Shown: positions 5,799-57,261 of the stretch, one piece after another | Layout: every line of letters begins with the position of its first letter | Position numbering within the stretch: position 1 is the first letter of the stretch | NCBI GenBank assembly: GCA_964592385.1 | Contig: CAZQEQ010000003.1 | Location: forward strand, 13,759 to 77,758 | From: an uncultured candidatus Brocadiaceae bacterium | Lineage (GTDB): Bacteria; Planctomycetota; Brocadiia; SM23-32 | Direction of reading: 5' to 3' | DNA length: 64,000 bases | The notes under the pieces: generated by a model | Databases searched by the model: none | The model's input: only the letters and a program-made list of their open reading frames with translations | What the model was told of the DNA's origin: nothing | Made by a program: the position numbers and the translations under genes

Positions 5799-5814
5799 GA
5801 GCATCTCCCTCCGA

Positions 5815-6306
5815 TCAATCGTCGAAACGCCGGCCCGTTTCAAACGCGGCGACATTTGCCTCAACGGTCCTCTCGGGCAGGCAGCGCCTGACGGCGTCGT
5901 GCCAGGATTGCGGCTCGACGTCGAAAAACCGGGAAAGCCTGCCCAGGGCGGCCATGTTCACCGAACGCGGATTCGCCACCTGCCCGCGCAGTTCCGCCGG
6001 CACGCCGATGAGCCGCCCGCGCTCACTGCGCAGGCGCGGCGCCGCCCGTCTGCCCTCGCTGTCGTCCAGCGCGACGATGAAGTCGGCCTCCTCGTAAGCG
6101 GCCAGCGGCGAGAACACGCGCTCGCCGCAGCGCACTTCGCTCAAGACGCTGCCTCCCCGTTGCGCCATGCCGTGGACTTCGCTCTGCTTGACGTCGTAAC
6201 CCTGGCCCATCAGCACCTCGGCCAGGACCTGGCTGGTCTTCAGCACGCCCTGCCCGCCGACGCCGACTATGAGCACGTTGACTGTCTCACTCGCCGCCAA
6301 CTTCAC
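5815..6306 (-). CDS. iorB: Indolepyruvate:ferredoxin oxidoreductase subunit beta
   Basis: 163 aa with GVGGQG at the N-terminus (POR gamma-like fold). GTG start overlaps the iorA stop (GTGA). Confidence 0.8.
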
Positions 6307-10475: not shown

Positions 10476-11873
10476 ATGGATTGGAAGAGGCTTGTCGGCG
10501 TGGCCTTTGTCGTGGGGATGTTATGTGCGGTTCCGACCGCTCTGGCTGCGGAGCCCGCCGGCTCCGAGCTGGCGCCCTCCGAGAGCGCGCTGGTAGAGTG
10601 GTTTCAGGGTGTGACACATCCGGCGGACTGCTTCTGCTGGGGCGGCGACCTCCGCCTGCGCCAGGTTTACTACAAGAACGCCATAGACATGACGGACGAG
10701 GCAGACGACACTTCCCATTTCTTCCGCACCCGTGCGCGGCTGTGGGGCCAGATAATACCTTCCAAGCTATTGGACGGCATGGACTGGGCCGAAGGCATGA
10801 AGCTCTACGTCCGCATGACGGCCGAGCCTCGCTACTTCATGGAAAGGCCCGGTTCGGAGCGGCCCACCTGGGACGAGGTGGTCTATGACAACCTCTACCT
10901 GGACTGGCCCAGGGTCGGCGGGCTGCCCATCTCGGTGCGGATCGGCCGCCAGGACATCCTTTACGGCAGGGGGTTCGTGATCCTCGATGGCACGCCGCTG
11001 GACGGTTCGCGAACCATTTACAGCGACGGCATCAAGGCCACGCTGCACCTGGACGACCAGGCCACGACAATCGACGCCTTCTACATCAACAACAAGGCCA
11101 ACGAGAAGCGTCTCCGTCCCTTCAACGAGACCGGACAGTGGACCAGCGAGTTCGACACCACGCTTGTCGGCGCGTACCTGATCAACAAGTCCATGGAAGG
11201 GCACGAACTGAACGCCTATTACATCTACAAGGACCAGAACTCCACCACCGGCAGCATGTGCCCCGAGATCCTGCACACGGTCGGCGGCCTGGCCCAGGGC
11301 AAGTTGGACTCCAACTACGATTACTACGTCGAGGCAGCCGGCCAGTGGGGCGCCTGCAGGAGGGTGACGGACCCGGAACCGGTGGAAGCATTTGGAGTGA
11401 GCGCCGAGGTCGGCCGCACATGGCCTGACGCCGGCTGGAAGCCGCGGGTCTTCGGCGCTTACGAATACCTCTCGGGCGACGACCCCGACACGAGGAAGGT
11501 CGAAGGCTGGGACCCCGTCCTGGCCAGATGGCCGCACTGGAGCGAGCTGTACGTCTATAGCTGGGCCGCGGAACTCCGCCCGCCGGGCTATTACACGAAC
11601 GTGCAGCGCTTCGCCCTCGGCGCCCAGGCAAAGCCCGGACCCAATACCTCCCTCGCGGTGGATTGGAGCTGGCTCCGAGCGAACGAGCGCACCGGGGGCC
11701 AGGACGGCCACGGCCGGGGCCAACTCGTCACAGCCAAGCTGATCCACAAGTTCAGCGAGTGGGTTTCCGGGCACGTGTGGGTGGAGTACTTCCATCCCTC
11801 CAGCGAGTACTACATGCCCAGTTCGGATGCCGCCGTGTTCGCACGATGGCAACTGGAGATCAAACTGCCCTGA
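10476..11873 (+). CDS. Outer-membrane beta-barrel porin, alginate-export (AlgE-like) family
   Basis: 465 aa with an N-terminal signal peptide (…ALAAEP). Aromatic-rich alternating strands throughout and the sequence ends in a C-terminal aromatic residue pattern. GGGAGGAAGG RBS. Confidence 0.6.
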   Translation: MDWKRLVGVAFVVGMLCAVPTALAAEPAGSELAPSESALVEWFQGVTHPADCFCWGGDLRLRQVYYKNAIDMTDEADDTSHFFRTRARLWGQIIPSKLLDGMDWAEGMKLYVRMTAEPRYFMERPGSERPTWDEVVYDNLYLDWPRVGGLPISVRIGRQDILYGRGFVILDGTPLDGSRTIYSDGIKATLHLDDQATTIDAFYINNKANEKRLRPFNETGQWTSEFDTTLVGAYLINKSMEGHELNAYYIYKDQNSTTGSMCPEILHTVGGLAQGKLDSNYDYYVEAAGQWGACRRVTDPEPVEAFGVSAEVGRTWPDAGWKPRVFGAYEYLSGDDPDTRKVEGWDPVLARWPHWSELYVYSWAAELRPPGYYTNVQRFALGAQAKPGPNTSLAVDWSWLRANERTGGQDGHGRGQLVTAKLIHKFSEWVSGHVWVEYFHPSSEYYMPSSDAAVFARWQLEIKLP

Positions 11874-11897
11874 CGGGCTGTCTTGACCGAACACGAG

Positions 11898-11933
11898 GAC
11901 CGGGCGGCACGCGCGCCGCCCGGTCTTTTTTTT
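11898..11933 (+). terminator. Rho-independent terminator
   Basis: GACCGGGCGGC-ACGCGC-GCCGCCCGGTC hairpin followed by T8, 25 nt after the porin stop. Confidence 0.65.
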
Positions 11934-12039
11934 CGCCGCCGGGGCGACCGCGCCCTGCGCCTGAGCTTACCGTGGACAGCCGCCTCGGCCGTGGCTATGA
12001 TGGCGCATTCCGAAAACGCGAGCACACGGGAGCAAGGGC

Positions 12040-13287
12040 ATGTCCTCAATCCGCGAGTACGTCGCAGCCGAACCTCTGTTCGACAACCACGAGCACCAGG
12101 GAGGCTTCGCCGCCCTGGAGGGGCGCAAGGGTGAACTGGCCTTCCGCGAGTTCGTCGGCTACGCCAACGCCGACGTCGCCACCAGCATGGGTCCCGACTG
12201 CAAGGCCCCTGGCAACCTTTCGGACGAGGAATTCTTCCACTGGTGGTCTTTCGTGCGGACCACCGGATACGGGCAGGCGACGGAGTTGACGTGCCGCTCG
12301 CTCCTCGGCCTCGACTACACGCAGGCGAACGCAGACGCCATCCGTGACGCCCTGGCGGAGTTCGTCCGGGACAGGAACGGAGAGCAGATATACGACGACA
12401 TGCTCGGGCGCGCCAACATCGTGGGCGCCGTCAACGACGCCTGCTGGAACTCCCCCACCGAACTGGACTTCTTCACCGGGCGGGAGCATCCGTCCTACTA
12501 CGGCCATGCGCTCCGCTACGACAACCTGCTCGTCCTGTCGGCCCGCTCCGACATGGAGCGCCTGGAGAGGGCGCTCGACCTCTCGATCCACCGGCTCGCC
12601 GACCTGGACGCGGCGCTTGACGCCTACACCGAGAGGGCCCGGGAGGCCGGCAAGCTGGTCGCGATGAAGTGCGGTCTGGCCTACAGACGGCCGCTGTCGT
12701 TCGAGGGCTCATCCTTCGCAGAAGCGGAGACGGCGTTCGAAGCCGTCATGCAGGAGAGGCCGGCCGACCTTCGCCCGCTCCACGATTACCTGTTCCATCG
12801 GTTCGTGCAGCGCGCGGCCGAGTTCGGCCTGCCCGTGCAGGTGCACACGGGCTACCTGGCCGGCAACTGGGGGATGCTGGGCCAGACGAATCCGGAACTC
12901 CTCATCCCCATCCTCCGGCGCTACAAGAACGTCCGCTTCGACCTGTTCCACGCGGGCTGGCCCTACTCGGAAGTGGCCGGCGCCATCGGCAAAGAGTTCC
13001 CGAACGTCTGGCTGGACCTCTGCTGGGCCTGGACGATGAACCCCGCGCAGATGGAGCGCATCCTGTCCGAATGGCTCGCCGCCGTGCCGCACAACAAGGT
13101 ATTCGCCTTCGGCGGCGACACAGGGTCACCCTTCCCCATGCTGGGCTACGCCCTTCAGGCGCGGGACGGCATCGCCAACGTCCTGGCCGAGGCGGTGGAG
13201 CGTGGCCGCTACGACGAGGCCACGGCACAGCAGGTGGCGCGGCGCATCATGCACGCCAACGCGCGCGAGTTCTACCGCGTGGATTGA
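12040..13287 (+). CDS. Amidohydrolase-2 family metal-dependent hydrolase (TIM barrel)
   Basis: 415 aa with an N-terminal HEHQ metal-binding motif, and conserved His and Asp residues later. GGGAG RBS. Confidence 0.7.
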   Translation: MSSIREYVAAEPLFDNHEHQGGFAALEGRKGELAFREFVGYANADVATSMGPDCKAPGNLSDEEFFHWWSFVRTTGYGQATELTCRSLLGLDYTQANADAIRDALAEFVRDRNGEQIYDDMLGRANIVGAVNDACWNSPTELDFFTGREHPSYYGHALRYDNLLVLSARSDMERLERALDLSIHRLADLDAALDAYTERAREAGKLVAMKCGLAYRRPLSFEGSSFAEAETAFEAVMQERPADLRPLHDYLFHRFVQRAAEFGLPVQVHTGYLAGNWGMLGQTNPELLIPILRRYKNVRFDLFHAGWPYSEVAGAIGKEFPNVWLDLCWAWTMNPAQMERILSEWLAAVPHNKVFAFGGDTGSPFPMLGYALQARDGIANVLAEAVERGRYDEATAQQVARRIMHANAREFYRVD

Positions 13288-28528: not shown

Positions 28529-29173
28529 GTGGGCAAAGGATACACTGAATCTCTGGACCGGCTCATGGAACTGCTCGGCCACATGCCGGGGGTCGGCGAG
28601 AAGACCGCCGAGCGGCTCGCGTATCACATCCTGCGCCTCTCGCGGGACGAGGCGCTGGCACTGGCCGACGCCATCCGGGAGGTCAAGGAGCGGGTCAAGC
28701 AGTGCTCGGTCTGCTACCACTTCTCGGAGAGCGACCCCTGCCCCATCTGCAGCGACCCGCGCCGCGACCATTCGACCATCTGCGTGGTGGAGGAATCCCG
28801 GGACCTGGTCGCGATAGAGCAGAGCGGCTACGGCGGCGTGTACCACGTCCTGTGCGGCCGCCTGGCGCCGTTGGAGGGCATCGAACCGGATGACCTGACC
28901 GCTGACAAACTGACAGAACGCGTGGCCAAAGGTCCGGTCGAGGAGGTCATTCTGGCCTGCAACGCGGACATGGAAGGAGAGGCCACCGCGCTGTTCGTCA
29001 GCCAGGCCCTGGAGGGGCTGCCGGTCAAAGTGACGAGGCTTGCCCGGGGCATCCCGGCCGGCAGTCAACTGGAGTACGCCAACGCGTCCGTGCTGGCGGA
29101 TGCCCTGGAAGGCCGACGGGAAGTGAACCGGCGGGAAGGGCCGGAGAGTAAGGCGGGCGAGGGGGATAGATGA
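28529..29173 (+). CDS. recR: Recombination protein RecR
   Basis: GTG start 6 nt after GAGGA. LPGVGEKTAERLA helix-hairpin-helix, a C4 zinc finger CSVC...CPIC, and a Toprim domain. Confidence 0.9.
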   Translation: MGKGYTESLDRLMELLGHMPGVGEKTAERLAYHILRLSRDEALALADAIREVKERVKQCSVCYHFSESDPCPICSDPRRDHSTICVVEESRDLVAIEQSGYGGVYHVLCGRLAPLEGIEPDDLTADKLTERVAKGPVEEVILACNADMEGEATALFVSQALEGLPVKVTRLARGIPAGSQLEYANASVLADALEGRREVNRREGPESKAGEGDR

Positions 29174-30639
29174 GGCTCGAGGCCAGCCTGCAGGCACGCC
29201 AGGAGATGCGGCTCAAGCTCGCGCCTCAAATCATACAATCAATAGAAATATTGCAGCTCTCCCTCATGGAGTTGCAGGGGCGGATCGACCAGGAACTGCT
29301 CGAGAACCCACTGCTGGAAGTGGGCCCGGAAGAGGAAGAGACCTCCGAAGAAGAGGAGGCCGCCAGCAGCGAGGAGGCCGGACCCGTCGAGGCCGTCGAA
29401 GAGGAGCCGGAAGGCGAGGCTGAACCGCTGGAGAGCGAAGACTTCGACGCGCTCGAGGAGTTGATCCAGCCGGCCGAGTACGACACCTACGGCTCCCGGC
29501 CCCGCGCCAGTTCAGGCGACGAGAGGGATGCCAAGCTGGCCGCCCTGGAGAACTCCCCCGCCCCCGAGATATCGCTCGAGGAGCACCTGCGCAGGCAACT
29601 CGCCTATTTCGAGATCGCTCCCGACACGCGCCAGATATGCGAGAACATCGTCGCCAACCTCGACTGGCGCGGCTACCTGGAGCATCCCCTGGAGGATATC
29701 GCATCGTCCATGGAGACGGACGTGACGGTGGAGCAGGCGGAAGAGGCGCTCCGGATCGTCCAGCAGCTCGAGCCCCCGGGGGTCGGCGCCCGGGACATCA
29801 AGGAGTGCCTGCTGCTCCAGTTGGACGAGCGGGACCCGCGCTACGAGTTCACCCGCCGCCTGATCGCCGACCACTTCGAGGACATCGCCAGGAACAGGTA
29901 CCCGAAGATCACAAGGGCCATGAGCTGCACGATGGCGCAGTTGAAGGAAGCCGTCGAGGAGATCGCCGGCCTCAACCCCATCCCGGGCGCCCTGTTCGCT
30001 CAAGCGCCCGCCCCGCACGTGATCCCGGACTTGCGCGTGGACCTGGTGGAAGGCGAGTTCCGCGTTATGCTCGAGGAGGAGACACTGCCCCCCCTGCGCA
30101 TATGCAGCTACTACGCCCGGCGACTCCAGCAAACCAACCTCGACCCGAAGACCCGCCAGTACCTGAGGGACAGGCTCCAGAGCGCCCGATGGCTCATCGA
30201 CGCCATCCAGCAGCGCCGCAGCACGATCTACAACATCGCCAGCTCCATCGTCGATGAGCAGAAGGACTTCTTCGCCAAGGGCCCCATGCACCTGAAGCCC
30301 CTGAAGATGCAGGAGATCGCCGACAAGGTCCGCGTCCACGTCTCGACCGTCAGCCGCGCCATCTCCGACAAGTACATCCAGACCCCCCAGGGCATCTTCT
30401 CGATGAAGCACTTCTTCACCGGCGGCGTGGCCAAGGACGACGGGGAGATGGAGTCCTGGGAAGTGGTCCGCCAGAAACTCCTTTACGTCGTCGAGAACGA
30501 GGACAAGAAGAACCCCCTCAGCGACAAGGACCTGGCGGACGAACTGGCCAAGCAGGGCATTGACATCGCGCGCCGCACGATATCCAAGTACCGCAAGATA
30601 CTCAACATCCCCTCTTCCCGCGCGCGTCGCCAGTACTGA
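29170..30639 (+). CDS. rpoN: RNA polymerase sigma-54 factor
   Basis: ATG overlaps the recR stop. Gln/Leu-rich region I (LKLAPQIIQSIEILQLSLMELQ), an acidic region II, and a C-terminal RpoN box (ARRTISKYR). Confidence 0.9.
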   Translation: MRLEASLQARQEMRLKLAPQIIQSIEILQLSLMELQGRIDQELLENPLLEVGPEEEETSEEEEAASSEEAGPVEAVEEEPEGEAEPLESEDFDALEELIQPAEYDTYGSRPRASSGDERDAKLAALENSPAPEISLEEHLRRQLAYFEIAPDTRQICENIVANLDWRGYLEHPLEDIASSMETDVTVEQAEEALRIVQQLEPPGVGARDIKECLLLQLDERDPRYEFTRRLIADHFEDIARNRYPKITRAMSCTMAQLKEAVEEIAGLNPIPGALFAQAPAPHVIPDLRVDLVEGEFRVMLEEETLPPLRICSYYARRLQQTNLDPKTRQYLRDRLQSARWLIDAIQQRRSTIYNIASSIVDEQKDFFAKGPMHLKPLKMQEIADKVRVHVSTVSRAISDKYIQTPQGIFSMKHFFTGGVAKDDGEMESWEVVRQKLLYVVENEDKKNPLSDKDLADELAKQGIDIARRTISKYRKILNIPSSRARRQY

Positions 30640-31099
30640 CCGCGACTCTCACGACCATCTCCAGCTCGACCGGCGCGTTGCGGGGCAGGGAGTTGGTGCC
30701 CACCGCCGAACGGACGTGTCTGCCCGCATCGCCGAACAGCTCGACCAAGAGCTCGGACGCCCCGTTGACCACCTCCGGCTGCATGTCGAAGCCCGGCGCG
30801 CTGTTGACGAACCCGCGCACCTGCACGACCTCGGCCACGCGGCCCAGGTCCCCGACGACGCCCTTGACGGCCGCCAGGCAGTTCAGCGCGCAGAGCCGGG
30901 CGCACTCGCGGCCCTCCTCCAGGGCGACGCCCGCCCCGACCTGCCCGGTGCAGCGCAGCCCGCCCTCCGCCATGGGCAGTTGCCCGGAGCAGTACACCAT
31001 GTCGCCCACTAGCTTCGCCGGGACGTATTGCGCCAGCGGCGCGGGCGGCTCCGGAAGGGCCAGACCCATCTCCCTCAGCCTCTTGTCCACCTCACCCAT
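30602..31099 (-). CDS. ridA: RidA/YjgF/TdcF (Rid) family protein
   Basis: Start at MGEVDKRLREMGLALPEP after GGGGAGAG. Chorismate-mutase-like Rid fold motifs. About 12 aa longer than usual at the C-terminus, overlapping the rpoN 3' end. Confidence 0.7.
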   Translation of the reverse strand: MGEVDKRLREMGLALPEPPAPLAQYVPAKLVGDMVYCSGQLPMAEGGLRCTGQVGAGVALEEGRECARLCALNCLAAVKGVVGDLGRVAEVVQVRGFVNSAPGFDMQPEVVNGASELLVELFGDAGRHVRSAVGTNSLPRNAPVELEMVVRVAVSTGDARGKRGC

Positions 31100-31399
31100 A
31101 TCTCTCCCCGTCCACGGCAAAGTCTTCACAAGGGATTTGCGTTGAGGATCGCGTGTGGCGCCGGCATCCTGCCCGCAGCTAAGCCGCCGAGACGGCGGCG
31201 CCACACAGCGGGGCTCGGCGCATGAGCGCGTCCCGGGTGCTGAGCATCCCGTCCGAACGACAAACACGTTGCTGACAAGGCAAATGGTTGCCGATGAGCC
31301 TTAGTTTACCGCCCGCGGGGCCGGCTGTATAATGCAGGGGCCAACCCCAACCGCGTGACGGAGCGCCGCGAAGTGGCCGGACAGCAGCACGAGAGCGCG

Positions 31400-32746
31400 A
31401 TGGCGGTCATGACCCTGGGCGAGCACCTGGAGGAACTGCGCCGGCGGCTCATCGTGTGCCTCGTGGCCGTCGCGGCCGTCTTCATCGTCTGCTGGCTGCG
31501 CAGAGGGTACGTCATGGCCGTGCTGCGCGGGCCGCACGAGCGCGTGATGCGCGCGTTCGACCTGAGCACGCTCCTGAAGTACCAGAGCTACCTGGAGCCC
31601 GTCTGGACGCAGCTGACGGCCTGCTTCGTCGTGGCGCTCATCATCGCCGCGCCGATCATCATCTACCAGACGTGGGCCTTCGTCGCGCCGGGCCTCTTCC
31701 CGCACGAGCGGCGCAAGGTGTTCCGCCTGGGCACGGCCTGCGTCGTCTGCTTCTTCGCGGGCATCAGTTTCGGCTACTTCGTGTTCGAGCCGGTCGCGTT
31801 CAGCTACCTGCTCCGCCTGGCCGGGCCGGGCACGGAGCCGGTGCTGATGATCGGGCCCTACGTGAAGGTATTCTTCCTGCTCACGTTCGCGCTGGGCATC
31901 GCCTTCCAGACGCCGGTGGTCATCTATCACCTGATTCGCTGGGGTGTTATCACCGTGGAGGGCCTCCGGCGCAGCCGCAAGGGAGTCATCCTCGGGGCGT
32001 TTATCCTGGGGGCGGTCCTGACGCCGCCCGACCCGCTGACCCAGATCATGATGGCGACCACGCTCATCATACTCTACGACCTGGGGGCCCTCGTGGCCGC
32101 GCCGGGCCGGGCGACGTTCGGCGCCTTCCTTCGCTTCACGGGCGTGGTCGTCCTCGTCGCGGCCGGCCTGGCCCTCTGGTTCAACTTCCGGAACGTTGCG
32201 GAACTGACGGTCCTGAAGGGCGAAGCGAGCGTGGGAGAGCTGGTGCTTGCGCGGGGCGAGAGCGCCGGCATCCGCCGGGGGGCGGCCTGCGAGGCGGGGC
32301 CGGACGCAGTCACCCGGCTCACCTTCGGCTCGAAGGAAGGCAAGGCGGCCTATCTGGCGGGCGAGGGGCGCCTGCGGGTCCACGCGCCCGACAGCCTTAG
32401 CCTGCTCGGCGGCGAGTGCCTCGTCCAGAGCGACGGCCGGGGCGGTCCCGTCCAGGTGCACGCGCCCGCCGCCACGGTGCTGGTCGAGAAGGCCAGCGTG
32501 GAACTGCTCGCGCCGCGTCCCGACGTCCTGACCGTCACGGTATTCACCGGCGAGGTAACGGCAAGGGCCGGCGAGGCGAGCAAACGCATAACGGCCGGGC
32601 ACACGGCGACCTTCCACAGCGGCGGCACGCCGGCGGACGTCACGGAGGCCGTCCGCCGCTGGGAGGAACGCCTGAAGCCCGAAGATCACCACAACGACAC
32701 GACGAGCACGACGACGAAGGAACCAGAACAACGGCCAACGGAATGA
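31400..32746 (+). CDS. tatC: Sec-independent protein translocase TatC with a C-terminal FecR-like domain extension
   Basis: The TatC core is complete: MTLGEHLEELRRRL plus 6 TM helices. An extra TM helix and a ~200-aa domain follow, with FecR-like beta-rich patterning (RLTFGSKEGKAAYLAGEGRLRV...PVQVHAPAATVLVEKASVELL). The start is uncertain (GTG at 31355 or ATG at 31400/31409). Confidence 0.7.
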   Translation: MAVMTLGEHLEELRRRLIVCLVAVAAVFIVCWLRRGYVMAVLRGPHERVMRAFDLSTLLKYQSYLEPVWTQLTACFVVALIIAAPIIIYQTWAFVAPGLFPHERRKVFRLGTACVVCFFAGISFGYFVFEPVAFSYLLRLAGPGTEPVLMIGPYVKVFFLLTFALGIAFQTPVVIYHLIRWGVITVEGLRRSRKGVILGAFILGAVLTPPDPLTQIMMATTLIILYDLGALVAAPGRATFGAFLRFTGVVVLVAAGLALWFNFRNVAELTVLKGEASVGELVLARGESAGIRRGAACEAGPDAVTRLTFGSKEGKAAYLAGEGRLRVHAPDSLSLLGGECLVQSDGRGGPVQVHAPAATVLVEKASVELLAPRPDVLTVTVFTGEVTARAGEASKRITAGHTATFHSGGTPADVTEAVRRWEERLKPEDHHNDTTSTTTKEPEQRPTE

Positions 32747-32923: not shown

Positions 32924-35900
32924 TCACAACGGCCGGCGGATGCTCAGCCGCGGGGCCGCCAGGCAGCCGGTTGGCACGAGGCTGTACTCGTCCTGCCACT
33001 GCTCGCCGCTAGTGGTGAAGCTGTGCGGCCCGACAAACTGGGGACGCGCCTCGGCATGGTGCAGCGGGCCGAAGGCGTTCCGGCGGTGCGTCACGACCTC
33101 CACGGCCAGCTCGACCTCGTCCTTGCCGGCCGCCAGGTCGGTCACGTCCACCTCGTGCGGTTGCCAGCCGACGACGCCGGCCTCCTGCCCGTCCACCAGG
33201 ACGCGGACGCATACGCCGCCGAACTCCGGCACCTCGACGCAGAGCCGCTCGCCATCGCCGAGGTCCGGCTGGACCCGCGTCCTGAAGACCACGGAGCCGC
33301 CGTAGAAGGGCAGCCCCTGCTCCCGCCAGTCGCCGAAGCCGACCCCCGGCAGCGGGCCGGTGACGCGGGCGTCCGCCCCGTCCACCGTGACGCCGAACTC
33401 TCCGAGCAGGAAGCACGCCTCCAGGTTGCAGTCGGCGTCCATGGTCCCGGCGAGCTCGAGCACGTTCCGCCCGGGTACAAGCGCCGCCTCGTCCAGAGGC
33501 AACAGCCGGATGCACCTGTCCACCCACCATCCGCAATCGGCGTCAAGCGATACCGCGCTGCCGTTCAGCGTGATATCGAAGTACTCGGGGTTCTCGACGG
33601 CCAGGAACACTGGCCCGCCAGGAAGGGCGTCCACCTGGAACGAGTAACGCAGTGAGACCGCCGCGGTCGGGCCGTCCTTCTTCTCTCGGGCCCAGGGCTG
33701 GACCATCTGGCCGCCACGCCAGGGCAGGCCGATGGCCTCCCTTATCTCGGCGTCGGCCTTCAGTATCTCCTTCGGGCCGCGCCAGTCGCCGTCGCCGACT
33801 CTGAACTCCGGCGCGTCGAGCACGAGCACGTTGTGGTCCGTCAGCTCCGCCGACCACGCCTGCTCGGCCAGGTCAACGGACCGCACCTCTTCCAGCGCCG
33901 GCAGGGCCGGTAGCTGCTCCGCACCGGGCGCCATCACGAAGAGGCGGCTGCCCGTAGGCGGCATGTCGGTGCGGAAGCGCACGGCCCCGTCGGCGGCCTC
34001 GCACTCCAGCGAATAACGGCGCCCGGTCCGGGCGTCCCAGAGCTGCACGGCGCCCCCGCCCTGAACGGTGACGGTCAGCTCGCCCGTCGCGTTCTCGCGG
34101 TCCGTGTTGCACATGAACAGACGGAGTTCATCGCCCTCCCGGTGGAGCCGGTAGAGGACGCCGTCCTTCTCGCCGCCGTCCTCGCCCCGTATGCTCGCGT
34201 CGCGCGCCCCGGCAACGGCAGCGGCGATAACCGCGCGCTCGAACGGAACGCTCTCGCACTGCGCGGCAAGCCCGGCGGCCGCGTCAGACTCTTCGGCGTC
34301 CACCCAGGCGGGGACGGGCTGGCAGAAGACCACCGTGCCGCCCGCGTCGTTGAACCGGCCCAGCAGGTCCAACGTGCTCGACCGCACCGTGTCCGCCGGC
34401 GGGACGAGAACGGCCGCGTAGGCGGCCTGCCCGACGACGAGCGACGGCTCCTCCCCCTCCTCGACGGACCCGAGGCGGGACATCATCTCCTCATCGCCGT
34501 AATCGAAGTCCAGGTGCTCGTCGAGCAGCCACGCGATGAGCGCCGCGAAGTCGTCCTCGAGGCGGTTGATGCTCGCGTCCTCGCCCCAGCCCGGGATGGC
34601 CCTGGCCCAGACGCTCTCGACGGGATGGACGACGAGGAGCCTGCGCACCGGCTCGCCGCGACTCATCACGGCGTTGACGCGCGCGAAGTAGTCCTCCACC
34701 GCGCCGTAGCGCTCCCACCACGGCGACTGGTAGGAGATGGAGGCCGGGTAATCGCGCTTGGCCTGGCCCGCCATCGTGTACCAGGACAGATGCTGGCAAC
34801 GCAGGTTGACCCCGAGGGCGGCCTGCCAGTCGCCGACGTACTTGTGCCCCTCGAACGGCCAGTCCCAGCCGGTGCAGCCGTAGAGCTCGGACAGCATCCA
34901 GCGCCGGCCCATCTGGTGCTGGACGCTGGCGCACTGCTTGGCGGTCGTCACCTCGTACCAGTGCTCGGTCAACTGGTCGATGCCGGGGGCCTGCATGAAC
35001 TCGTAGAAGCGCATCGGCGCCCCGCCCACCGACGCCTGAGAGCGCAGCGTGCTCTCGGCCAGCACGTGGCCCGTGCTCATGACGCCGTTCGCCTCGCACC
35101 ACTCGAATATGAGCCGTGCGAACGCGTCCACGAACAGGAACGTCGTGCAATCGTGGTAGTGGTGCCTGGGGCGGGAGACTTTCTGGCCGTCCACGTTGAA
35201 GAACAGGTGCGGCAGGCGGTCGAGTATGTCGTAACCGTAACGGTCCCGGAAGTGCTCCGGCAGCCTGTCCGTCCAGGGCACGCCGAGCGCCTCGCGCCTT
35301 TCCACGGAGCCTTTGACAAAGAGGCCGCCGTGGTGCGGCTCGTCGGTGAAGATGCCGGGCATGACGGTCCCCAAGTCGCCGCCCACTTCGCGGCCGTACG
35401 CCTCGTGCGTCACCTCGATGAACTTGCGGACGGCCTCGTGGCTCATCGTGTCCAGGTAAGTCGCGTCGTTGAACCAGGAACTGGGCTCATCGGGCACGAC
35501 GAAGAAAGCCAGCACCTTCGCGCCGTCCGGGGCGCCCTTGGCCTCGGCCAGGCGCCTGACGTCGGTCGCGTTCCTGCCGTCCACGCGCGCGCTGAACAGC
35601 GCGAGCGGCGCCGCCTCGAACTGCGCTTCGGCCGGGTCGCAGATGACCATGTGTAGGTTCCGGTGCCGGTAGCGCGGGTCGCTGGTGACCAGCCCGCCCC
35701 CGGCGCCGGAGGGCCAGCGGTCCTCGTCATAGAGCCAGGCCTCCATGCCGAGCTCACGGGCCTCGTCGACGCAGACCTTGATCATCCGGAACCATTCGTC
35801 GGACAGGTAAGCGGTGCCGAGGCCGACCCTGGAGTGCATGAAGAAGCCCCCCAGGCCCATGCGATGCATCACGCGTATCTGGCGCCGCAGCTCTTCGGCG

Positions 35901-35983
35901 TCCAGCTTCCCGTTCCACGCCCAGAAGGGCTTGCCGCGGTAGGCCGCCCCGGGATTCTCGAAGGCTTCTCTCAGTTCGTCCAT
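32924..35983 (-). CDS. Large cytoplasmic putative glycoside hydrolase (family unassigned)
   Basis: Start at MDELREAFENPGAAYRGKPFWAWNG after GGAAGG. 1019 aa with no signal peptide. The N-terminal KPFWAWNGKL block and TIM-barrel-like catalytic region resemble uncharacterised glycosidase families. Multiple beta-sandwich domains at the C-terminus. Confidence 0.5.
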   Translation of the reverse strand: MDELREAFENPGAAYRGKPFWAWNGKLDAEELRRQIRVMHRMGLGGFFMHSRVGLGTAYLSDEWFRMIKVCVDEARELGMEAWLYDEDRWPSGAGGGLVTSDPRYRHRNLHMVICDPAEAQFEAAPLALFSARVDGRNATDVRRLAEAKGAPDGAKVLAFFVVPDEPSSWFNDATYLDTMSHEAVRKFIEVTHEAYGREVGGDLGTVMPGIFTDEPHHGGLFVKGSVERREALGVPWTDRLPEHFRDRYGYDILDRLPHLFFNVDGQKVSRPRHHYHDCTTFLFVDAFARLIFEWCEANGVMSTGHVLAESTLRSQASVGGAPMRFYEFMQAPGIDQLTEHWYEVTTAKQCASVQHQMGRRWMLSELYGCTGWDWPFEGHKYVGDWQAALGVNLRCQHLSWYTMAGQAKRDYPASISYQSPWWERYGAVEDYFARVNAVMSRGEPVRRLLVVHPVESVWARAIPGWGEDASINRLEDDFAALIAWLLDEHLDFDYGDEEMMSRLGSVEEGEEPSLVVGQAAYAAVLVPPADTVRSSTLDLLGRFNDAGGTVVFCQPVPAWVDAEESDAAAGLAAQCESVPFERAVIAAAVAGARDASIRGEDGGEKDGVLYRLHREGDELRLFMCNTDRENATGELTVTVQGGGAVQLWDARTGRRYSLECEAADGAVRFRTDMPPTGSRLFVMAPGAEQLPALPALEEVRSVDLAEQAWSAELTDHNVLVLDAPEFRVGDGDWRGPKEILKADAEIREAIGLPWRGGQMVQPWAREKKDGPTAAVSLRYSFQVDALPGGPVFLAVENPEYFDITLNGSAVSLDADCGWWVDRCIRLLPLDEAALVPGRNVLELAGTMDADCNLEACFLLGEFGVTVDGADARVTGPLPGVGFGDWREQGLPFYGGSVVFRTRVQPDLGDGERLCVEVPEFGGVCVRVLVDGQEAGVVGWQPHEVDVTDLAAGKDEVELAVEVVTHRRNAFGPLHHAEARPQFVGPHSFTTSGEQWQDEYSLVPTGCLAAPRLSIRRPL

Positions 35984-36002
35984 CTGTTCCTTCCGCCGAT
36001 TG

Positions 36003-36977
36003 TCAGGAGGCCTTCTGACTTGCCTGGCCGCCGTCGTCCTCGGCGACCTTCTGCTCAAAGTAGCCCAGTGCCATCCGCAGTCCGTCGAGCCGGTCCACCT
36101 CGGGCTCCCAGCCGAGCGCGCGCTTCGCCTTCGCGATGTCTGGCTGGCGCACCTTGGGGTCGTCCACGGGCAGCGGCTCGAAAACGATCTTGCTCCTGGA
36201 CCCAGTCAGCTCCACTATCTCCTCGGCCAGTTGCATGATGGTGATCTCTGCGGGGTTGCCCAGGTTGACGGGCTCGTTCTCCTCGCTCTCCAGCAGCATG
36301 TGTACGCCGCGGACCATGTCGCTTATGTAGCAGAAACTGCGCGTCTGGGAGCCGTCGCCGTAAACTGTAAGGTCCTCGCCCTTGAGCGCCTGGCGGAAGA
36401 AGGTGGGCAGGGCCCGCCCGTCGCGCAGGCGCATCCGCGAGCCGTAGGTGTTGAATATCCGCGCGATGCGGGTGCTGAGGCCGTGGACGCGGTGGTAGGC
36501 CATGGTTAGGGCCTCGGCGTAGCGCTTGGCCTCGTCGTAAACGCCGCGCGGGCCGACGGGGTTGACGTTGCCCCAGTAATCCTCCGGCTGGGGGTGTATC
36601 TGCGGGTCGCCGTAGCACTCGCTGGTGGAAGCCAGCAAGAAGCGCGCCCCCTTCTCCCGGGCCAGGCCGAGGGCCTTGTGCGTGCCCAGCGCGCCCACCT
36701 TGAGCGTCTCAATCGGGTATTCGAGGTAGTCCACCGGGCTGGCGGGAGAGGCGAAGTGCAGCACGTTGTCCACCCGGTCCCCGATGTGGATGTACTCGGT
36801 GACGTCGTGGCGGATGAACCTGAACCGCTCGTGCCCGAACAGGTGCTCAACGTTGCCCCCGCTGCCCGTGAGCAGGTTGTCCAGGCAGATGACCTCGTGC
36901 CCGGCCTCGATGAAATGGTCGCACAGGTGCGACCCGATGAAGCCCGCCCCGCCGGTTATCACGGTCCTCTCTGGCAT
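36003..36977 (-). CDS. uxs: UDP-glucuronate decarboxylase (UDP-xylose synthase)
   Basis: [11 protein letters not shown] Rossmann motif, a YxxxK catalytic motif, and an overall UXS1-like sequence. Confidence 0.85.
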
Positions 36978-36998
36978 GAGTCCTCCCTCGTCCCGAGT

Positions 36999-38322
36999 CT
37001 ATATCCTGTGGATGTGCCCCCCGTCGAGGCCCTTGAGCGCGTTCCGCGTGTCCAGCACCAGGGGCGCGTGGCGCACCACCCAGTCCCATGGGAAGTCCGA
37101 ATGGTCCGTCACGACCAACGCGCAGTCGCAGTCGGGCAGGCCGCTCTCTTCCAGTTCGACGGACTCGAGCCGCGCCCCGTCCGACAGGCGAACGGAGGGG
37201 ACGTGCGGGTCGCTATAGCTGACCTCGGCCCCCTTGCGCAGCAGCAGCTCGATGATCGTCAGCGCGGGGGACTCCCGCACGTCGGAGACGTCGCGCTTGT
37301 AGGCGACGCCCAGGACGTGGACGCGCGAGCCGCGCACGGGTTTGCCGGCGTCGTTGAGCAGGTCGGCCAGGCGCTGCACCACGTAGCGGGGCATCGAAGA
37401 GTTCACCCGGCCCGCCAGGTCGATGAAACGCGGCTCGAAGCCGTGCAGCCGCGCCTTCCACGCCAGGTAGAACGGGTCCACCGGGATGCAGTGCCCGCCC
37501 AGCCCGGGGCCCGGGTAGAATGCCTGGAAGCCGTAGGGCTTGGTTCCGGCGGCATCCACCACCTCCCAGACGTCCACGCCCAGCTCGTGGCACATCAGCG
37601 CCAGCTCGTTGACCATGGCGATGTTGATGCTGCGGTAGGTGTTCTCCAACAGCTTGACCATCTCGGCCACCGTGCTGCTGGAGACGGGGACGACCGTGTT
37701 CAGTATCCTGCCGTAGAACTCGGCGGCCGCGCGCGTGCAATGCGCCGTGACCCCGCCCACCACCTTCGGCACGTTCTCAATGCCGTATTCGCGTTGGGCC
37801 GGCCCGGGGTCTATGCGCTCCGGGCTGAAGGCCAGCCAGAAGTCTTCCCCCACCCTGAGCCCATCCCGCTCCAGCCTGGGCCGGACCAGCTCGTCGGTGG
37901 TGCCCGGATACGTGGTGCTCTCCAGGACCACCAGCTTCCCCGGGCTCATGTGCTCCGCTATCGCATCGACGCTCCGCACGATGAAAGACACGTCCGGCTC
38001 GCCCGTCTTGCGCAGCGGCGTGGGCACGCAGATGAGGATGACGTCGCTGTCGGCCACAGCGTCGTAGTCGCTGGTGGCGGTGAAGCCTTCCCCCGCCGCC
38101 CGCGCCAGGTCCTCGTCCGACAGGTCGTCAATGTAGGAACGCCCTTCGGCGATGCCCCGCACGCGCGAGGCGTCCACGTCTATGCCGACGACGCGCTCGG
38201 CGCCGCGCATGCACTGCATGGCCATGGGCAGGCCGACGTAGCCGAGGCCCGCCACGGCCGCCGTGAAGCGCCCGGAGCGCACCTTGCCGATGAACTCGTC
38301 CAGGGAAGCCGCCGCTGCCACT
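36999..38322 (-). CDS. ugd: UDP-glucose 6-dehydrogenase (nucleotide-sugar dehydrogenase family)
   Basis: GTG start after GAGGG, chosen because no ATG precedes the AVAGLGYVGLP Rossmann motif. Catalytic Cys context GGHCIPVDP. Confidence 0.8.
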
Positions 38323-38323
38323 T

Positions 38324-39319
38324 TCAGCCCTCGTCCCGCCGGGGTATCAGGAAGCGCCTGGGCTCGTCCATGATGTAAACGTCGCCGGTCCAGGACTCGC
38401 CCTCGGGGGCCTGCTCGACGGCGCCGAGGCAGGAGTGCATCGTGGCGCTGAGGATGTCGCAGTAGTGCAGGAGCACGGCCTCCGGCGTCCGCGGCAGCAC
38501 GGGCGAACCCCAGGTGAGCTTGCCGTGGTGGCTCAGAATGACGTGCAGCAGGAGGGTCTTGGTGTGGTTGGCCTGCTCCGCCTCGTCGCGGGGCACGCCG
38601 GGCTTCACCGCGCTGTCCCAGACGTTGCTGACCATGGAGCCGCTGATGAAGATGTGGTCCAGCAGGTCCCCCGCCACCGTGCGCTGGCTGACGCCTGCGG
38701 TCAACTGGTACGAGTTCACCTTGCCCACGTCGTGGAGCGCGGCGCCGCAGAGCAAGAGATCCTGGTCCAGCCGGCCCTTGTAGAACGCCCCCAGGCGCTC
38801 GGCCAGGTTCCACACCTCCAGCGTGTGCTCGGCGAGCCCGCCCTGGTAGTTGTGATGGTGGAAGCTGGCCGCCGGGCTCTCCTTGAAGGCGGCCGCGAAG
38901 GCATTGTTGTCATGGAACTCGGCCATCAGCCGCTTCAGGTGAGGGTCGCTGAACCTGTCGCCCTGCCAGTTGAAGAGCGTCTCGAAGGCCTCGTCCACGT
39001 CGGTCTCCGTGCGGTGGACGTAAGGCGACAGGTCGTATTCTTCGGGCAGGAGGACCTTGTAGCGCTGTATGTTGAGCTGTTTCCTGCCGCGATATTCGTC
39101 CACCCGCGCCAGGATCTCCAGCCCCTGGCCGGCCTTGATTTCGGCCCCGATGTTGTCGCTCCAGACCTTGCCCTCGATGGGGCGCCCACCCTCGGTGTTG
39201 AGCCTCAGGGTGTAATAGTTCTGCCCCCGCCGGTCCACGCCGAGCCTGGCCTCGGCAACCAGGACGACCTGGTCGGTGACGAGTTGACCTGCTTCCAGCC
39301 GGTCTATGTCCACTTGCAT
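38324..39319 (-). CDS. OB-fold plus HD-domain 3'-5' exoribonuclease (YhaM-like)
   Basis: N-terminal OB-fold nucleic-acid-binding domain and an HD domain (H...HD...H...D motifs: ALHDVGK, LSHHGK). Confidence 0.65.
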   Translation of the reverse strand: MQVDIDRLEAGQLVTDQVVLVAEARLGVDRRGQNYYTLRLNTEGGRPIEGKVWSDNIGAEIKAGQGLEILARVDEYRGRKQLNIQRYKVLLPEEYDLSPYVHRTETDVDEAFETLFNWQGDRFSDPHLKRLMAEFHDNNAFAAAFKESPAASFHHHNYQGGLAEHTLEVWNLAERLGAFYKGRLDQDLLLCGAALHDVGKVNSYQLTAGVSQRTVAGDLLDHIFISGSMVSNVWDSAVKPGVPRDEAEQANHTKTLLLHVILSHHGKLTWGSPVLPRTPEAVLLHYCDILSATMHSCLGAVEQAPEGESWTGDVYIMDEPRRFLIPRRDEG

Positions 39320-39547
39320 TCGCTCCCGAAGAAGCCTGGGCGGGAACGCCCAACGTAGCCTCTCGGGGCCGTTCTGTCAAGTGTGCGCGTCGGCCATTCG
39401 GGGGGCCTGATCGCCCGCTCGGGCGCATGGCAACGTTACATAACTAACTGCCTAAAGGGCGCATACGATGCATCCCCCCGGGCCGAACACGATTCCGCTT
39501 GCCCTCGGCCCGCGACGGGCGCTAACATCAGGTTGGAGCACTGGACC

Positions 39548-40435
39548 ATGAGCGCCTTGATTGACGATTTCCTGCACCGACTGGCTGTCGAGAGGGGCTA
39601 TTCGCCCAACACGCTGCGGGCGTACGCGGGCGACCTGTGCGCCCTGGAGGAATTCCTGGAGGACCGCCATCGCGGGATGGACGAGGCCACCGTCCACGAC
39701 GTGCGGGCCTTTCTGGCGACGCTCCGCATGCGGGGGCTCTCGCGCGCCACTATCGCGCGGCGCACGGCCGCCGTCCGCTCATTTCACAAGTTCCTGGCCC
39801 GCCAGGGCGTCCTCGATGCCAACCCCATGGCCGCCCTGCGCTCGCCCCGGCGCGAGCGCAGGCTGCCCATCTTCCTCACCGTCACGGAAGTCGAGCGCCT
39901 GCTGGAGCAGCCGGACACCGCGACGTGGATCGGCCTGCGCGACCTGGCCATGATCGAAACGCTCTACGGCGCGGGCCTGCGCGTGAGCGAGCTGGTCGCA
40001 CTCGACCATGACGACCTGGACCTGGGCGCCGGCCTCCTGCGCGTCCAGGGCAAGGGCAAGAAGGAGAGGGTCGCGCCGGCGGGAAGATGTGCCGTGTCGG
40101 CTATTCGGACCTACCTGTCCGCCGGCGGCGAGGACGCGCCGCCCCGGCGCGACCCGCACGCGGTCTTCGTGAACGCCCGCGAAGGCGCCCGCCTCACCAC
40201 CCGGAGCGTCAACAGGAGGCTGCGCCGCTACGTCCTGCAAGCCGGCCTCGACCCGCGCGTCAGCCCGCATTCCCTGCGCCACAGCTTCGCCACGCACATG
40301 CTGACCAACGGGGCCGACCTGCGGGCGATCCAGGAACTGCTCGGGCACGAGAACCTGAGCACGACGCAGATATACACCCACCTCTCGCACGAACACCTCA
40401 AGCAGACTTACGACGCCGCGCATCCTCGGGCCTGA
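39548..40435 (+). CDS. xerC: Tyrosine recombinase XerC/XerD
   Basis: Start at MSALIDDFL after GGAG. R...HxxR...Y catalytic pattern ([24 protein letters not shown]). Confidence 0.85.
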
Positions 40436-54739: not shown

Positions 54740-56362
54740 CTACCGCTTCTTGAGCACTATCTTGCCGTCGCGGATCTCGTACGTCAGCCCCTTGGGACCG
54801 AGGATCTCTCCAAGCGCTTGCTGGCACGGCACGTTCACAATGTGCGGCGTTATCCACACGCGGCAGGTCGGGTTCGTATTCTTGTAGGAAGCGTCCCAGT
54901 TGTAGGCCAACCCCGCCTGTTTGGCGATCGCAATCACAGCGTACTGGACGGCCATCTTGTCCGTGCGAGCCCCTTTGTAACTCTCCGGGTACGGTGCGGT
55001 CAGGGAGACCCGCTTGGTGAGCGCCTGGTGCACGGACACGGGCTCCTTCGTTAGCACGAGCGCGTTGCCCCGGATTTCGTAAGTCAGCCCCTTCGGACCC
55101 AGTATCTGTTCGAGCGCCTCATGGCACGGCACGTTCACAATGTGCGGCGTTATCCAGACGCGGCAGGTGGGGTTGGTATTCTCGTACGAAGTGGTCCAAT
55201 CGTAGCCCAGCCCGACCTCTTTTGCGATTGCCGTGACGGCATCCTGCACCGACATCTTGTCAGGGACGCAGTCCTTGTGAACCATCGGGTACGGCGCAGT
55301 CAGAGAAACCGGTTTCATCAGCGCCTGCCGGACGCCATCCGAGCCGGCCGGCGGCGCGCCGGTCGCGCGGCCCGGAGCAGCCGGCGTTTGCCGTGGCTCG
55401 CCCGAATCAGAGGCCGGTTCTAACTCGGCAACGGCTGTCTCCTCGGACGCCGCCACCAACACTTCGCCGGTCCGCACCTTCACCACGCGCGCGTGGACTT
55501 CCATCATCCCGGGCGCCTTCTTCACGACAGAGCCCGTCACGACGGCGTAGGCGCCGGCGAGCTTGCCAAGCTTCTCGGCCGTCTCGGCGTCCACCAGGCC
55601 CGTGTGCTGGAGGGCCAGCTCGGAGAGCACGCCGTCAAGCTGCTTCCGCTCGACCAGGGGCAGGCCGCGGTCGGCGAAGGTCGTCGCCCATTCGTCCCGC
55701 AGGCGGCGGGCCGGCCCGGCAAGTTCCGCGTCGCCCGCGCTCAACGGGAGCACCGCGAGCGCCTTGCACGCCGCGTCCACCTTGACCCGGTCGCCGGGCT
55801 GGATGTCCGCCTCCAGGTGGCTGTCCCTCCTGCCCTTGGCGAACTTCTCCTCGGCCTCCGTCACGGTTAGTTCGGCAATGAGGGCCTGCACTGCGCCCAG
55901 CTCCTCGCCCGTCTCGGGATCAATGAGCGCCTCGCCCTCGCGATAGACTCTTAACCGGTCCTCGAGCTCGATGCCGTTCCTTGAGCCCAGGTTCACGTAC
56001 ACGCTGGTCGGAGTCACCCTGACGACCTGTCCGGCCGCCGTCACCTTCACGGCCTGCCCCAGCCGCCACGCCAGGTAGGGAGCAAGACCCGCCCACTTTA
56101 CGGCCTCCTCGGTGGTTATGTCGCGCTCCAGCCTGCGAACGCTGTCCTGAGGCATGCTCGATTCCTTGCCCGTCTCGATATCCAGGAACTGGAGTATCTC
56201 CTCCTCAGCATCGGACAGGTCCACCACGTAAACCTGGCCCGACTTGCTCACTATCTTGGAGAGCGAGGGCGCGGGCTGCTCCTCGGCGCCCCGCACCGGC
56301 GAGAACCCAACCAGGCCAACGACGATGCACACGAAGGCCGCTGAAATCCGTACGCGTCCCAT
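54740..56362 (-). CDS. Secreted protein with two C-terminal tandem STN-like (secretin/TonB N-terminal-type) domains
   Basis: Start at MGRVRISAAFVCIVVGLVGF (signal peptide) after GGGAGG. The C-terminal ~200 aa are two ~100-aa repeats (…DAVTAIAKEVGLGYDW…RVWITPHIVNVPCHEALEQILGPKGLTYEIRGNALVL), matching the STN-domain pattern. Confidence 0.6.
   Translation of the reverse strand: MGRVRISAAFVCIVVGLVGFSPVRGAEEQPAPSLSKIVSKSGQVYVVDLSDAEEEILQFLDIETGKESSMPQDSVRRLERDITTEEAVKWAGLAPYLAWRLGQAVKVTAAGQVVRVTPTSVYVNLGSRNGIELEDRLRVYREGEALIDPETGEELGAVQALIAELTVTEAEEKFAKGRRDSHLEADIQPGDRVKVDAACKALAVLPLSAGDAELAGPARRLRDEWATTFADRGLPLVERKQLDGVLSELALQHTGLVDAETAEKLGKLAGAYAVVTGSVVKKAPGMMEVHARVVKVRTGEVLVAASEETAVAELEPASDSGEPRQTPAAPGRATGAPPAGSDGVRQALMKPVSLTAPYPMVHKDCVPDKMSVQDAVTAIAKEVGLGYDWTTSYENTNPTCRVWITPHIVNVPCHEALEQILGPKGLTYEIRGNALVLTKEPVSVHQALTKRVSLTAPYPESYKGARTDKMAVQYAVIAIAKQAGLAYNWDASYKNTNPTCRVWITPHIVNVPCQQALGEILGPKGLTYEIRDGKIVLKKR
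54762..55320 (-). repeat. Intragenic tandem direct repeat (2 x ~280 bp, ~303-bp period, high nucleotide identity)
   Basis: Near-identical DNA blocks (…TGGCACGGCACGTTCACAATGTGCGGCGTTATCCA[C/G]ACGCGGCAGGT…) are visible twice. They encode the two STN-like domains. Confidence 0.75.
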
Positions 56363-56418
56363 ATTCTGTGCCTCCCACAATGACGTCCAGACTCCCATGG
56401 ACCCCTTCGCCCGCCGCC

Positions 56419-57261
56419 TTACATTGCGTCCATTGCTTTCATCCGCCGCAGCTCCCTGTCGCGCAGTGAGCGCCTGAGGCGCCAGAGGCCCACCGCCGCC
56501 GGCAGCGCCAGAACCGCGCCCAACACCCAGAGGGACACCCGAAGGGCGCCGGCCCCGACCGCGAATCCGAGCCCCGCGCCGCCCAACCCCGCCAGCAGCA
56601 ATAGCGCCAGCAGGCCCGCCGCGAAGCCCCGCGCCCGGCCGCGAGTCGTCTGCCAGAAGACAAGGCCATGAGCAGCAACCGCCGCAACCGCCAGGCACCA
56701 CACGACGTAAACCGCGGAGCGCGATTCGAGCAACGAGGGCCTTTCAGCGGGGTACGCGACAACGCTCAGCGCCCCCAGCACCAGCGTCCCCCCGCCCGGA
56801 AAGACCGCGCTTAGCACCAGCCTGTCCGGCGTCTTCGCCGGGTCGTCCGCAGCGAATTCAAGGGCAAAGGACCGCCACTCGCCCGTGCCGCTGAAGGCGC
56901 GGGCGGGGCCCGAGCTTTGGTCCGTTCTGGTCACCCTCGTCTCCCCGTCGGGCAGCACGGCCCAGGCTTCCAGGCAAGCCCGACCCTCCACGTTCTCGTG
57001 CCGGAGTTGACCGGTTATCGCGTACTTGGCCCCGGTGATCCCGGGACGTCCGATGGTCAGTATCTCGACGGTGGAGGGGCCGCGGCCCGGCGCCGCGACC
57101 AGCAGCCGGCTGAACGGGGTTCCCGCGTCCGGCTCGATCACAACCCCCTGGGCCAGTTCCATGCCGTCCCCGAGGCGGTCCCACTGCACCTCTCGGACCA
57201 CCTCCTCGGCCGTGCAGAGGCTGCTGCACGCCAACAAGCCGCTGATCAGCAGTCCCCTCAT
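56419..57261 (-). CDS. Membrane protein, paralog B (same architecture as 53793..54680)
   Basis: Lipoprotein-like signal peptide (LLACSSLC), an extracytoplasmic domain, 3 TM helices, and a C-terminal tail RELRRMKAMDAM. Start overlaps the stop of the upstream DUF2089-like gene (ATGA). Confidence 0.6.
   Translation of the reverse strand: MRGLLISGLLACSSLCTAEEVVREVQWDRLGDGMELAQGVVIEPDAGTPFSRLLVAAPGRGPSTVEILTIGRPGITGAKYAITGQLRHENVEGRACLEAWAVLPDGETRVTRTDQSSGPARAFSGTGEWRSFALEFAADDPAKTPDRLVLSAVFPGGGTLVLGALSVVAYPAERPSLLESRSAVYVVWCLAVAAVAAHGLVFWQTTRGRARGFAAGLLALLLLAGLGGAGLGFAVGAGALRVSLWVLGAVLALPAAVGLWRLRRSLRDRELRRMKAMDAM

Follow-up and report, generated by a model that had tools for sequence, protein, structure and literature searches.

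A TatC protein continued by a seventh transmembrane helix and a FecR-type domain in uncultured Planctomycetota

The fusion gene and its parts

The 64,000-nucleotide stretch of DNA analysed here (hereafter the window; contig CAZQEQ010000003.1 of an uncultured candidatus Brocadiaceae bacterium, G+C content 67%) carries a tatC gene whose product continues beyond the usual six-helix core of the twin-arginine translocation (Tat) protein TatC into a seventh transmembrane (TM) helix and a FecR-type domain predicted to lie in the periplasm. The gene is a single uninterrupted open reading frame (ORF) at 31355..32746 on the forward strand, encoding 463 amino acids (aa) counted from the first GTG and closed by a stop codon at 32744-32746, and its neighbours are a divergent ridA-like gene on one side and, on the other, a GH106-like glycoside hydrolase gene that converges on it. 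Four candidate starts are available (GTG 31355, GTG 31373, ATG 31400 and ATG 31409), of which public gene callers chose GTG 31373, giving a protein of 457 aa, whereas ATG 31409 encodes Met19, which is invariant across the family. The initial annotation began the gene at 31400; this is the ATG of residue 16, but the ORF itself opens upstream at GTG 31355. The features of the gene are as follows.

31305..31333, forward strand: sigma-70-like promoter match (TTTACC-17 nt-TATAAT) directly 5' of the ORF, with 10/12 consensus matches
31355..32746, forward strand: whole ORF, a TatC-TM7-FecR-like fusion of 463 aa, from the ORF call, Pfam/NCBIfam matches and the family alignment
31409..32101, forward strand: TatC core with six TM helices, residues 19-249, from PF00902, TIGR00945, Foldseek and key residues
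32102..32125, forward strand: cytoplasmic TM6-TM7 loop, residues 250-257, net positive, consensus AAPSRxTxxxF
32126..32188, forward strand: TM7, residues ~258-278, predicted N-in/C-out, from hydropathy, AlphaFold2 (AF2) modelling and conservation
32189..32683, forward strand: predicted periplasmic FecR-type (CJM-like) all-beta domain with a short helix, residues 279-443, from AF2 and fold and profile searches
32684..32743, forward strand: variable low-complexity C-terminal tail, residues 444-463, unconserved in the family alignment and modelled with a predicted local distance difference test score (pLDDT) of ~50-60

The TatC core proposed in the initial annotation proved to be complete. PF00902 (TatC) matched residues ~22-241 with E=1.2e-57 (195.6 bits, cutoff 25.1), and TIGR00945 scored 182.5 bits on the core against a cutoff of 132.7. 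A full-length AF2 model built from a 52-sequence family alignment (mean pLDDT 88.8, predicted TM-score 0.78) has the TatC fold in its N-terminal half, which retrieved 9DZZ, 4B4A, 4HTS and 9E07 in Foldseek searches at E=1e-10 to 4e-12, with target TM-scores of 0.78-0.88 against the solved TatCs of E. coli, A. aeolicus and N. salsuginis. E15 and E103 of E. coli TatC make up the twin-arginine recognition site and E170 is an intramembrane polar residue; residue-level alignment pairs them with E27, E118 and Q185 of the window protein, respectively, all three of which are invariant in the 52 family sequences. Nothing in the sequence suggests a degenerate TatC, and the TatC half is likely to be active.

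The extra TM segment noted at first reading after the core was likewise recovered, both as a Kyte-Doolittle peak of 2.05 at residues ~258-278 and as an AF2 helix at 252-278 with pLDDT >90; it is kept throughout the 52-member family, in which F258, F261 and G263 hardly vary. The TM6-TM7 loop ahead of it, in which P250 is invariant, bears a net charge of +1 to +3 in 51/52 members, while the 12 residues past TM7 are about neutral. Both termini of TatC are cytoplasmic, and because one further helix follows that N-in/C-in core, the C-terminal domain should lie in the periplasm; from the topology of TatC and the charge bias together we infer that TM7 is oriented N-in/C-out. Export of E. coli FecR is reportedly Tat-dependent, as Passmore et al. 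are said elsewhere to have found in 2020, and Tat-dependent self-insertion of TM7 through a preceding twin-arginine motif, in the manner of dual Sec/Tat membrane proteins, was a candidate; it was rejected, as the 52 TM6-TM7 loops hold no conserved RR motif and adjacent basic residues occur in just 4/52. For the TatC-FecR protein of Kuenenia, three topology predictors also gave a non-cytoplasmic C-terminal domain (PMC2881027).

A divergent FecR-type domain

The domain beyond TM7 is too divergent to be detected directly in the window protein, which has no match to the FecR family PF04773 even at E≤10 and whose extension is without any Pfam or NCBIfam match. Among the 52 family members, however, 33 match PF04773 at E≤1 (best 8.1e-6), and five of ten more distant TatC fusions reach its gathering score (24.2-39.4 bits vs 24). 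When the family profile was compared with PDB sequences, the best non-TatC match was 4M0N, described as a 'putative anti-sigma factor', at a marginal E=0.027. A profile made from 24 isolated extension domains (A2), searched exhaustively against 1.84e9 representative proteins, matched 3,536 proteins at E≤1e-3, ranked in the order of the family itself, divergent TatC fusions and then classic FecR proteins; the last, of ~320-340 aa, were retrieved at E~1e-10 to 1e-8 and score 39-58 bits against PF04773. Ten non-TatC matches were sampled, nine of which contain PF04773, eight of them above the gathering score, and one such protein, P0151, combines a zf-HC2 anti-sigma domain with FecR. Word-indexed searches returned one protein with the extension alone and two with its profile, so that a full-length query and an exhaustive hidden Markov model (HMM) search were needed to see the family.

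Predicted structure points the same way. A domain-only AF2 model (pLDDT 94.6) contains 13 strands and one helix, and in the full-length model an all-beta domain at residues 279-429 is followed by a helix at 430-440. Searched against the PDB, the domain model gave four significant matches only, all of FecR type: 4M0N and two chains of 4M0H (E=1.8e-5), and 6OVK_R, the C-terminal cell-surface signalling domain of PupR (E=5.7e-5). All had a probability of 1.00, query TM-scores of 0.58-0.61 and a root-mean-square deviation of 2.5-3.0 Å over ~124 columns; the next PDB match stood at E=0.057 with a probability of 0.09. CJM is the juxtamembrane subdomain of PupR and has a twisted beta-solenoid-like fold (PMC7186176). 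Profiles and models thus identify the extension as a genuine but divergent FecR domain, equivalent to the CJM subdomain of PupR/FecR, and the beta-rich, FecR-like C-terminal domain first suspected from residue patterning has both family-level and fold-level likeness to back it. Cupin identity was also considered in view of weak matches to Cupin_3 in 17/52 members and Cupin_2 in 9/52, and was rejected, with no cupin structure among the significant fold matches; we treat these matches as beta-pattern noise or very remote similarity.

The extension is collinear with classic FecRs, in which a TM helix, a ~20-residue linker and the beta domain follow one another, and Gly and Trp landmarks are common to both. 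What is missing is the remainder of the signalling apparatus. In alignment with classic FecRs the N-terminal anti-sigma domain is absent from the window protein, TatC occupying the region before the TM helix; the STN subdomain is absent as well, the protein stopping ~25 residues past the CJM-like domain where classic FecRs run on for ~90 aa. The Gly-Thr site is lacking in ~50/52 family members (Gly-Thr or a near equivalent in at most 2/52), the aligned cleavage position reading VGTxFEV in classic FecRs, GARAE in the family consensus and EKASVE in the window protein. This autoproteolytic site corresponds to G181-T182 of FecR and G191-T192 of FoxR, and is common in the FecR family but not universal (PMC9249621). 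In PupR, the transducer is bound only when both CJM and STN are present, CJM alone having failed in pulldowns, and the isolated CJM subdomain is unstable (PMC7186176). Genes for extracytoplasmic function sigma factors or TonB-dependent transducers were adjacent to the fusion neither in the window nor in two distant fusion loci. Because the anti-sigma domain, STN, the Gly-Thr site and the sigma/transducer neighbours are all missing, the window protein uses part of FecR but is not a FecR-type sigma regulator. The initial annotation had suggested that the domain might couple Tat export to signalling or to substrate recruitment; of these, signalling is disfavoured, since the window protein has none of the FecR parts on which sigma-factor signalling depends, and recruitment of substrates or partners on the periplasmic side is possible.

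Distribution and gene neighbourhood

Five independently assembled contigs encode the identical protein in the same rpoN / ridA-like / tatC / GH106-like context, and the fusion as such extends well beyond them. A full-length search recovered >50 clusters at 90% identity, with proteins of 424-474 aa that share 41-58% identity at coverage >90%; 51 full-length homologues (40-58% identity) align across the TatC-FecR junction with no frame breaks, and a truncated relative also aligns gap-free through it. A TatC core is present in 24 of the 150 best-ranked clusters at 50% identity from the exhaustive search, so that the same fusion is present in related genomes in more than 50 clusters at the finer level and at least 24 at the coarser one. 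Its named sources are all metagenome-assembled genomes (MAGs) of an uncultured 'Planctomycetota bacterium' or 'Candidatus Brocadiia bacterium', and the loci that bear it span 54-69% G+C; no named anammox genus appears among the cluster names of its relatives. Averaged over pairs of family members, identity falls from 0.60 in the core to 0.40 in TM7 and 0.37 in the extension, which evolves faster than the core yet is maintained.

To our knowledge few membrane proteins are as uniform as TatC, and variants with extra domains seldom occur in nature. The fusion is unusual when set against model organisms, as the initial annotation held, but its architecture was published in 2010 for Kuenenia stuttgartiensis and Planctomycetota MAGs carry it widely. 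In that report, Medema et al. (2010) found that the single TatC of K. stuttgartiensis (kustc0286, CAJ71031) ends in a non-cytoplasmic FecR domain, considered this without parallel among TatCs and put forward, as speculation, a role in anammoxosome sorting (PMC2881027). Our literature search found no paper on the TatC-FecR fusion after that report. The window protein is a divergent addition to an already published architecture, and the fusion itself is not new.

Other layouts were seen among the relatives. P0057 (472 aa) and P0058 (457 aa) have a Planctomycetota-type TatC, TM7 and a ~190-aa extension with no Pfam match; they were considered as further FecR-like fusions and rejected as such, since hhalign alignments stop at TM7 and the extension is of another kind. 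TatC plus TM7 seems to be a platform to which periplasmic domains of more than one kind have been added. In P0046 (636 aa) and the P0130 cluster (633-638 aa), the TatC-FecR protein has an additional ~165-aa N-terminal cytoplasmic extension that is extremely acidic, of low complexity and rich in Glu, Asp, Pro and Tyr. In P0069 (567 aa), P0107/P0109 (476 aa) and P0112 (495 aa) the Pfam TatC match is split in two or stretched over >340 residues, a pattern repeated in P0076 (341 aa) and P0083 (318 aa); because the match is split or stretched, these proteins carry large loop inserts, reminiscent of the M. xanthus and N. salsuginis TatCs employed for cryo-EM (PMC13323110).

The fusion gene is solitary, standing among housekeeping genes in different lineages. 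In the window rpoN, recR and dnaX lie farther upstream of the ridA-like gene. The downstream order of GH106-like gene, HD-domain protein gene and xerC-like gene (window 32924-40435) is kept in loci L001, L002, L004 and L005, the proteins of this block sharing 65-75% identity between genomes vs 55-58% for tatC-FecR itself. The upstream side varies, with a divergent purD in L002, and around more distant fusions (L019-L021) the neighbours include a Ser/Thr kinase gene, UDG, ribH-nusB-ftsY and rplT-rpmI-infC-thrS. Synteny suggests no functional partner in the loci examined. As noted at first reading, no tatA or tatB gene is adjacent: searches by regular expression, small HMM and phmmer found neither a TatA/TatB-like ORF nor a second tatC in the 64-kb window or in L001-L005, and no TatA/B Pfam family is listed among the neighbours of the distant fusions L019-L021. 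A crude scan of the window for Tat signal peptides gave no convincing candidate. The promoter scan found one site vs 0.2 expected in shuffles, on the basis of consensus match only, and this putative promoter, together with the divergent gene upstream and the convergent gene downstream, is consistent with solo transcription of tatC-FecR.

Several further features of these loci are recorded here. The ridA/YjgF-like gene (30602-31267, reverse strand) overlaps the 3' end of rpoN (29170-30639, forward strand) convergently by ~38 nt, and its product is 165 aa long according to public callers vs a maximal ORF of 221 aa. An Arg-/Ala-rich ORF of 476 aa at 31301-32731 on the reverse strand runs antisense to nearly all of tatC-FecR; it is no gene but a spurious shadow ORF of the kind typical of high-GC genomes. 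An ORF at 54743-56701 (reverse strand) has STN (PF07660), CsgG and FlgT_C Pfam matches and ends in two near-identical ~75-aa repeats (…LTAPYP…TNPTCRVWITPHIVNVPC…LGPKGLTYEIR…); its product had no match in any fetched locus, hence no syntenic partner. Locus L002 contains, at ~5600-6250 and ~11800-12420, several copies of a repeated intergenic element, seen as near-identical ORF fragments (…RAMKDEQRATALTGMDRVDRMTATTTAEGSLNNIAVSLASPRRHCCRVFILGILDIPVRGRC) with a poly-Thr/poly-Val-coding run, possibly akin to miniature inverted-repeat transposable elements or repetitive extragenic palindromic sequences.

Possible roles and comparison with known systems

On balance, we think it somewhat probable that the fusion is a working, probably housekeeping TatC, whose CJM-type domain serves in the periplasm as an accessory, structural or protein-binding, rather than as a sigma signalling device. 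The TatC core would serve as signal-peptide receptor and organising core of the Tat machine that exports folded proteins; TM7 would return the chain across the membrane, and the ~150-residue twisted beta-solenoid FecR/CJM domain would then be displayed in the periplasm. There, on the trans side of TatBC, its task would not be to signal to a sigma factor; it may instead stabilise or cap the periplasmic face of the TatC oligomer, for example, or dock a periplasmic partner. Both the Tat activity and the accessory role are what we infer for the protein, and we propose an accessory rather than a sigma signalling role in view of the lack of an anti-sigma domain, STN and the Gly-Thr site. In support of a housekeeping role we count the solitary position of the gene among housekeeping genes in different lineages, and the occurrence of the fusion in Kuenenia as its single tatC (PMC2881027). 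Large inserts in periplasmic loops characterise two atypical TatCs, from M. xanthus and N. salsuginis, that were used in a 2026 structural study; on the periplasmic face of a TatBC trimer the M. xanthus insert assembles into a homotrimer and adds to the contacts between TatC subunits, with transport inferred to occur at the periphery of the TatBC complex (PMC13323110). By analogy with these inserts, an accessory role of the same sort may be proposed for the CJM-type domain.

Three considerations weigh against this assignment. The fusion could be a specialised paralogue, the genome data covering 64 kb; the lower identity of the extension (0.37 vs 0.60 for the core) is compatible with partner-specific binding and equally with a looser structural role; and a stand-alone CJM may need a partner, given that the isolated PupR subdomain is unstable (PMC7186176).

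In an alternative that we hold to be unlikely, the CJM-type domain is a trans-envelope docking or sensing module that binds a partner, e.g. an STN-domain protein supplied in trans from the outer membrane or periplasm, and thereby tethers the Tat translocon or gates and regulates export. CJM of PupR/FecR forms part of the surface that binds the STN fold (PMC7186176), and as the fusion has no STN subdomain of its own, STN could come in trans; the window does encode the STN/CsgG/FlgT_C protein described above, and the extension diverges faster than the core, as expected of a co-evolving interface. However, none of the loci examined shows a conserved partner gene beside the fusion, the window's STN protein is unmatched in all fetched loci, and PupR CJM on its own did not bind the transducer domain in pulldowns (PMC7186176). 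A narrower form of this idea, a split CJM+STN interface at which the CJM of TatC docks an outer-membrane or periplasmic STN protein (secretin-like, TonB-dependent or CsgG/STN), we regard as improbable. If true, it would join the Tat translocon physically to an outer-membrane partner, which would take over folded substrates for passage across the envelope or gate Tat activity; this would amount to a Planctomycetota-specific trans-envelope extension of the Tat pathway.

Division of labour between two TatCs is known from B. subtilis, in which TatCd and TatCy form substrate-specific pairs. The fusion might likewise be a specialised paralogue that serves a subset of substrates while a canonical TatC encoded elsewhere does general export, and short canonical TatCs do exist in Planctomycetota MAGs, e.g. 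P0056 (256 aa, 43% identity). We consider this doubtful: the gene stands among housekeeping genes, the TatC core is well conserved with its key residues all present, no second tatC occurs within the 64 kb, and in Kuenenia the fusion is the only tatC (PMC2881027).

A role in sorting to the anammoxosome, proposed when the fusion was first seen in Kuenenia (PMC2881027), seems very improbable, despite the label of class 'Candidatus Brocadiia' on several of its members. The window encodes a glycoside hydrolase, sugar-nucleotide enzymes and the housekeeping proteins SMC, glyS and purD, and no anammox marker was found among its scanned ORFs, although 64 kb is weak evidence on this point. Moreover, the 54-69% G+C lineages that carry the fusion are far from the known anammox genera, which lie at ~40-45% G+C. 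Finally, the chance that a frameshift, missed stop or chimeric assembly joined tatC to a separate downstream FecR-like gene is practically negligible: high-GC genomes do yield spurious ORFs of considerable length, the 476-aa shadow ORF being one, but no support for an artefact was found, and the same continuous, uninterrupted protein in five independent assemblies, the 51 homologues that cross the junction without frame breaks and the conservation of the TM6-TM7 loop itself all speak against two genes.

More widely, TatC-TM7-FecR is a conserved feature across a broad set of uncultured Planctomycetota, and this wide spread weakens the sole published idea of its role, anammoxosome sorting. The well-folded, clearly delimited domain also offers a handle on the Tat core, on its periplasmic side, that could aid structural work as the M. 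xanthus and N. salsuginis inserts did. TM5 and TM6 of TatC are the binding sites for TatA and TatB, and because TM7 follows TM6 directly, a structure would show how these sites tolerate or use an extra helix. Practical impact will be modest until the function of the domain is established.

Compared with canonical TatC (E. coli 9DZZ; Aquifex aeolicus 4B4A), the window protein has the same six-TM fold at 33-34% identity, but where canonical TatC comes to a cytoplasmic end after TM6 at ~250 aa, it adds TM7 and a ~185-aa extension predicted to be periplasmic. That extension shares the layout of TM helix, linker and CJM/FecR domain with E. coli FecR, P. aeruginosa FoxR, P. capeferrum PupR (6OVK) and BDI_1681 (4M0N). 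The closest published counterpart, kustc0286, is likewise from Planctomycetota and likewise extends a TatC core by a FecR domain at a non-cytoplasmic C-terminus, and in neither case is tatA/B adjacent. In kustc0286, here compared by its published description, that domain is PF04773, whereas FecR of the window protein is too divergent for direct Pfam detection, and the window lineage, at 67% G+C, is probably not anammox, unlike Kuenenia; a fusion stated in 2010 to be unique to Kuenenia is here present in at least 24 clusters at 50% identity. The TatCs of M. xanthus (9E03/9E0S) and N. salsuginis (9E02), like the window protein, combine a TatC core with a large folded periplasmic domain. In these two the domains are periplasmic-loop inserts without an extra TM helix, whereas that of the window protein is C-terminal, reached through TM7 and of FecR/CJM fold; both are nevertheless functional TatCs, and as such provide a precedent for an accessory role in TatC-TatC packing.

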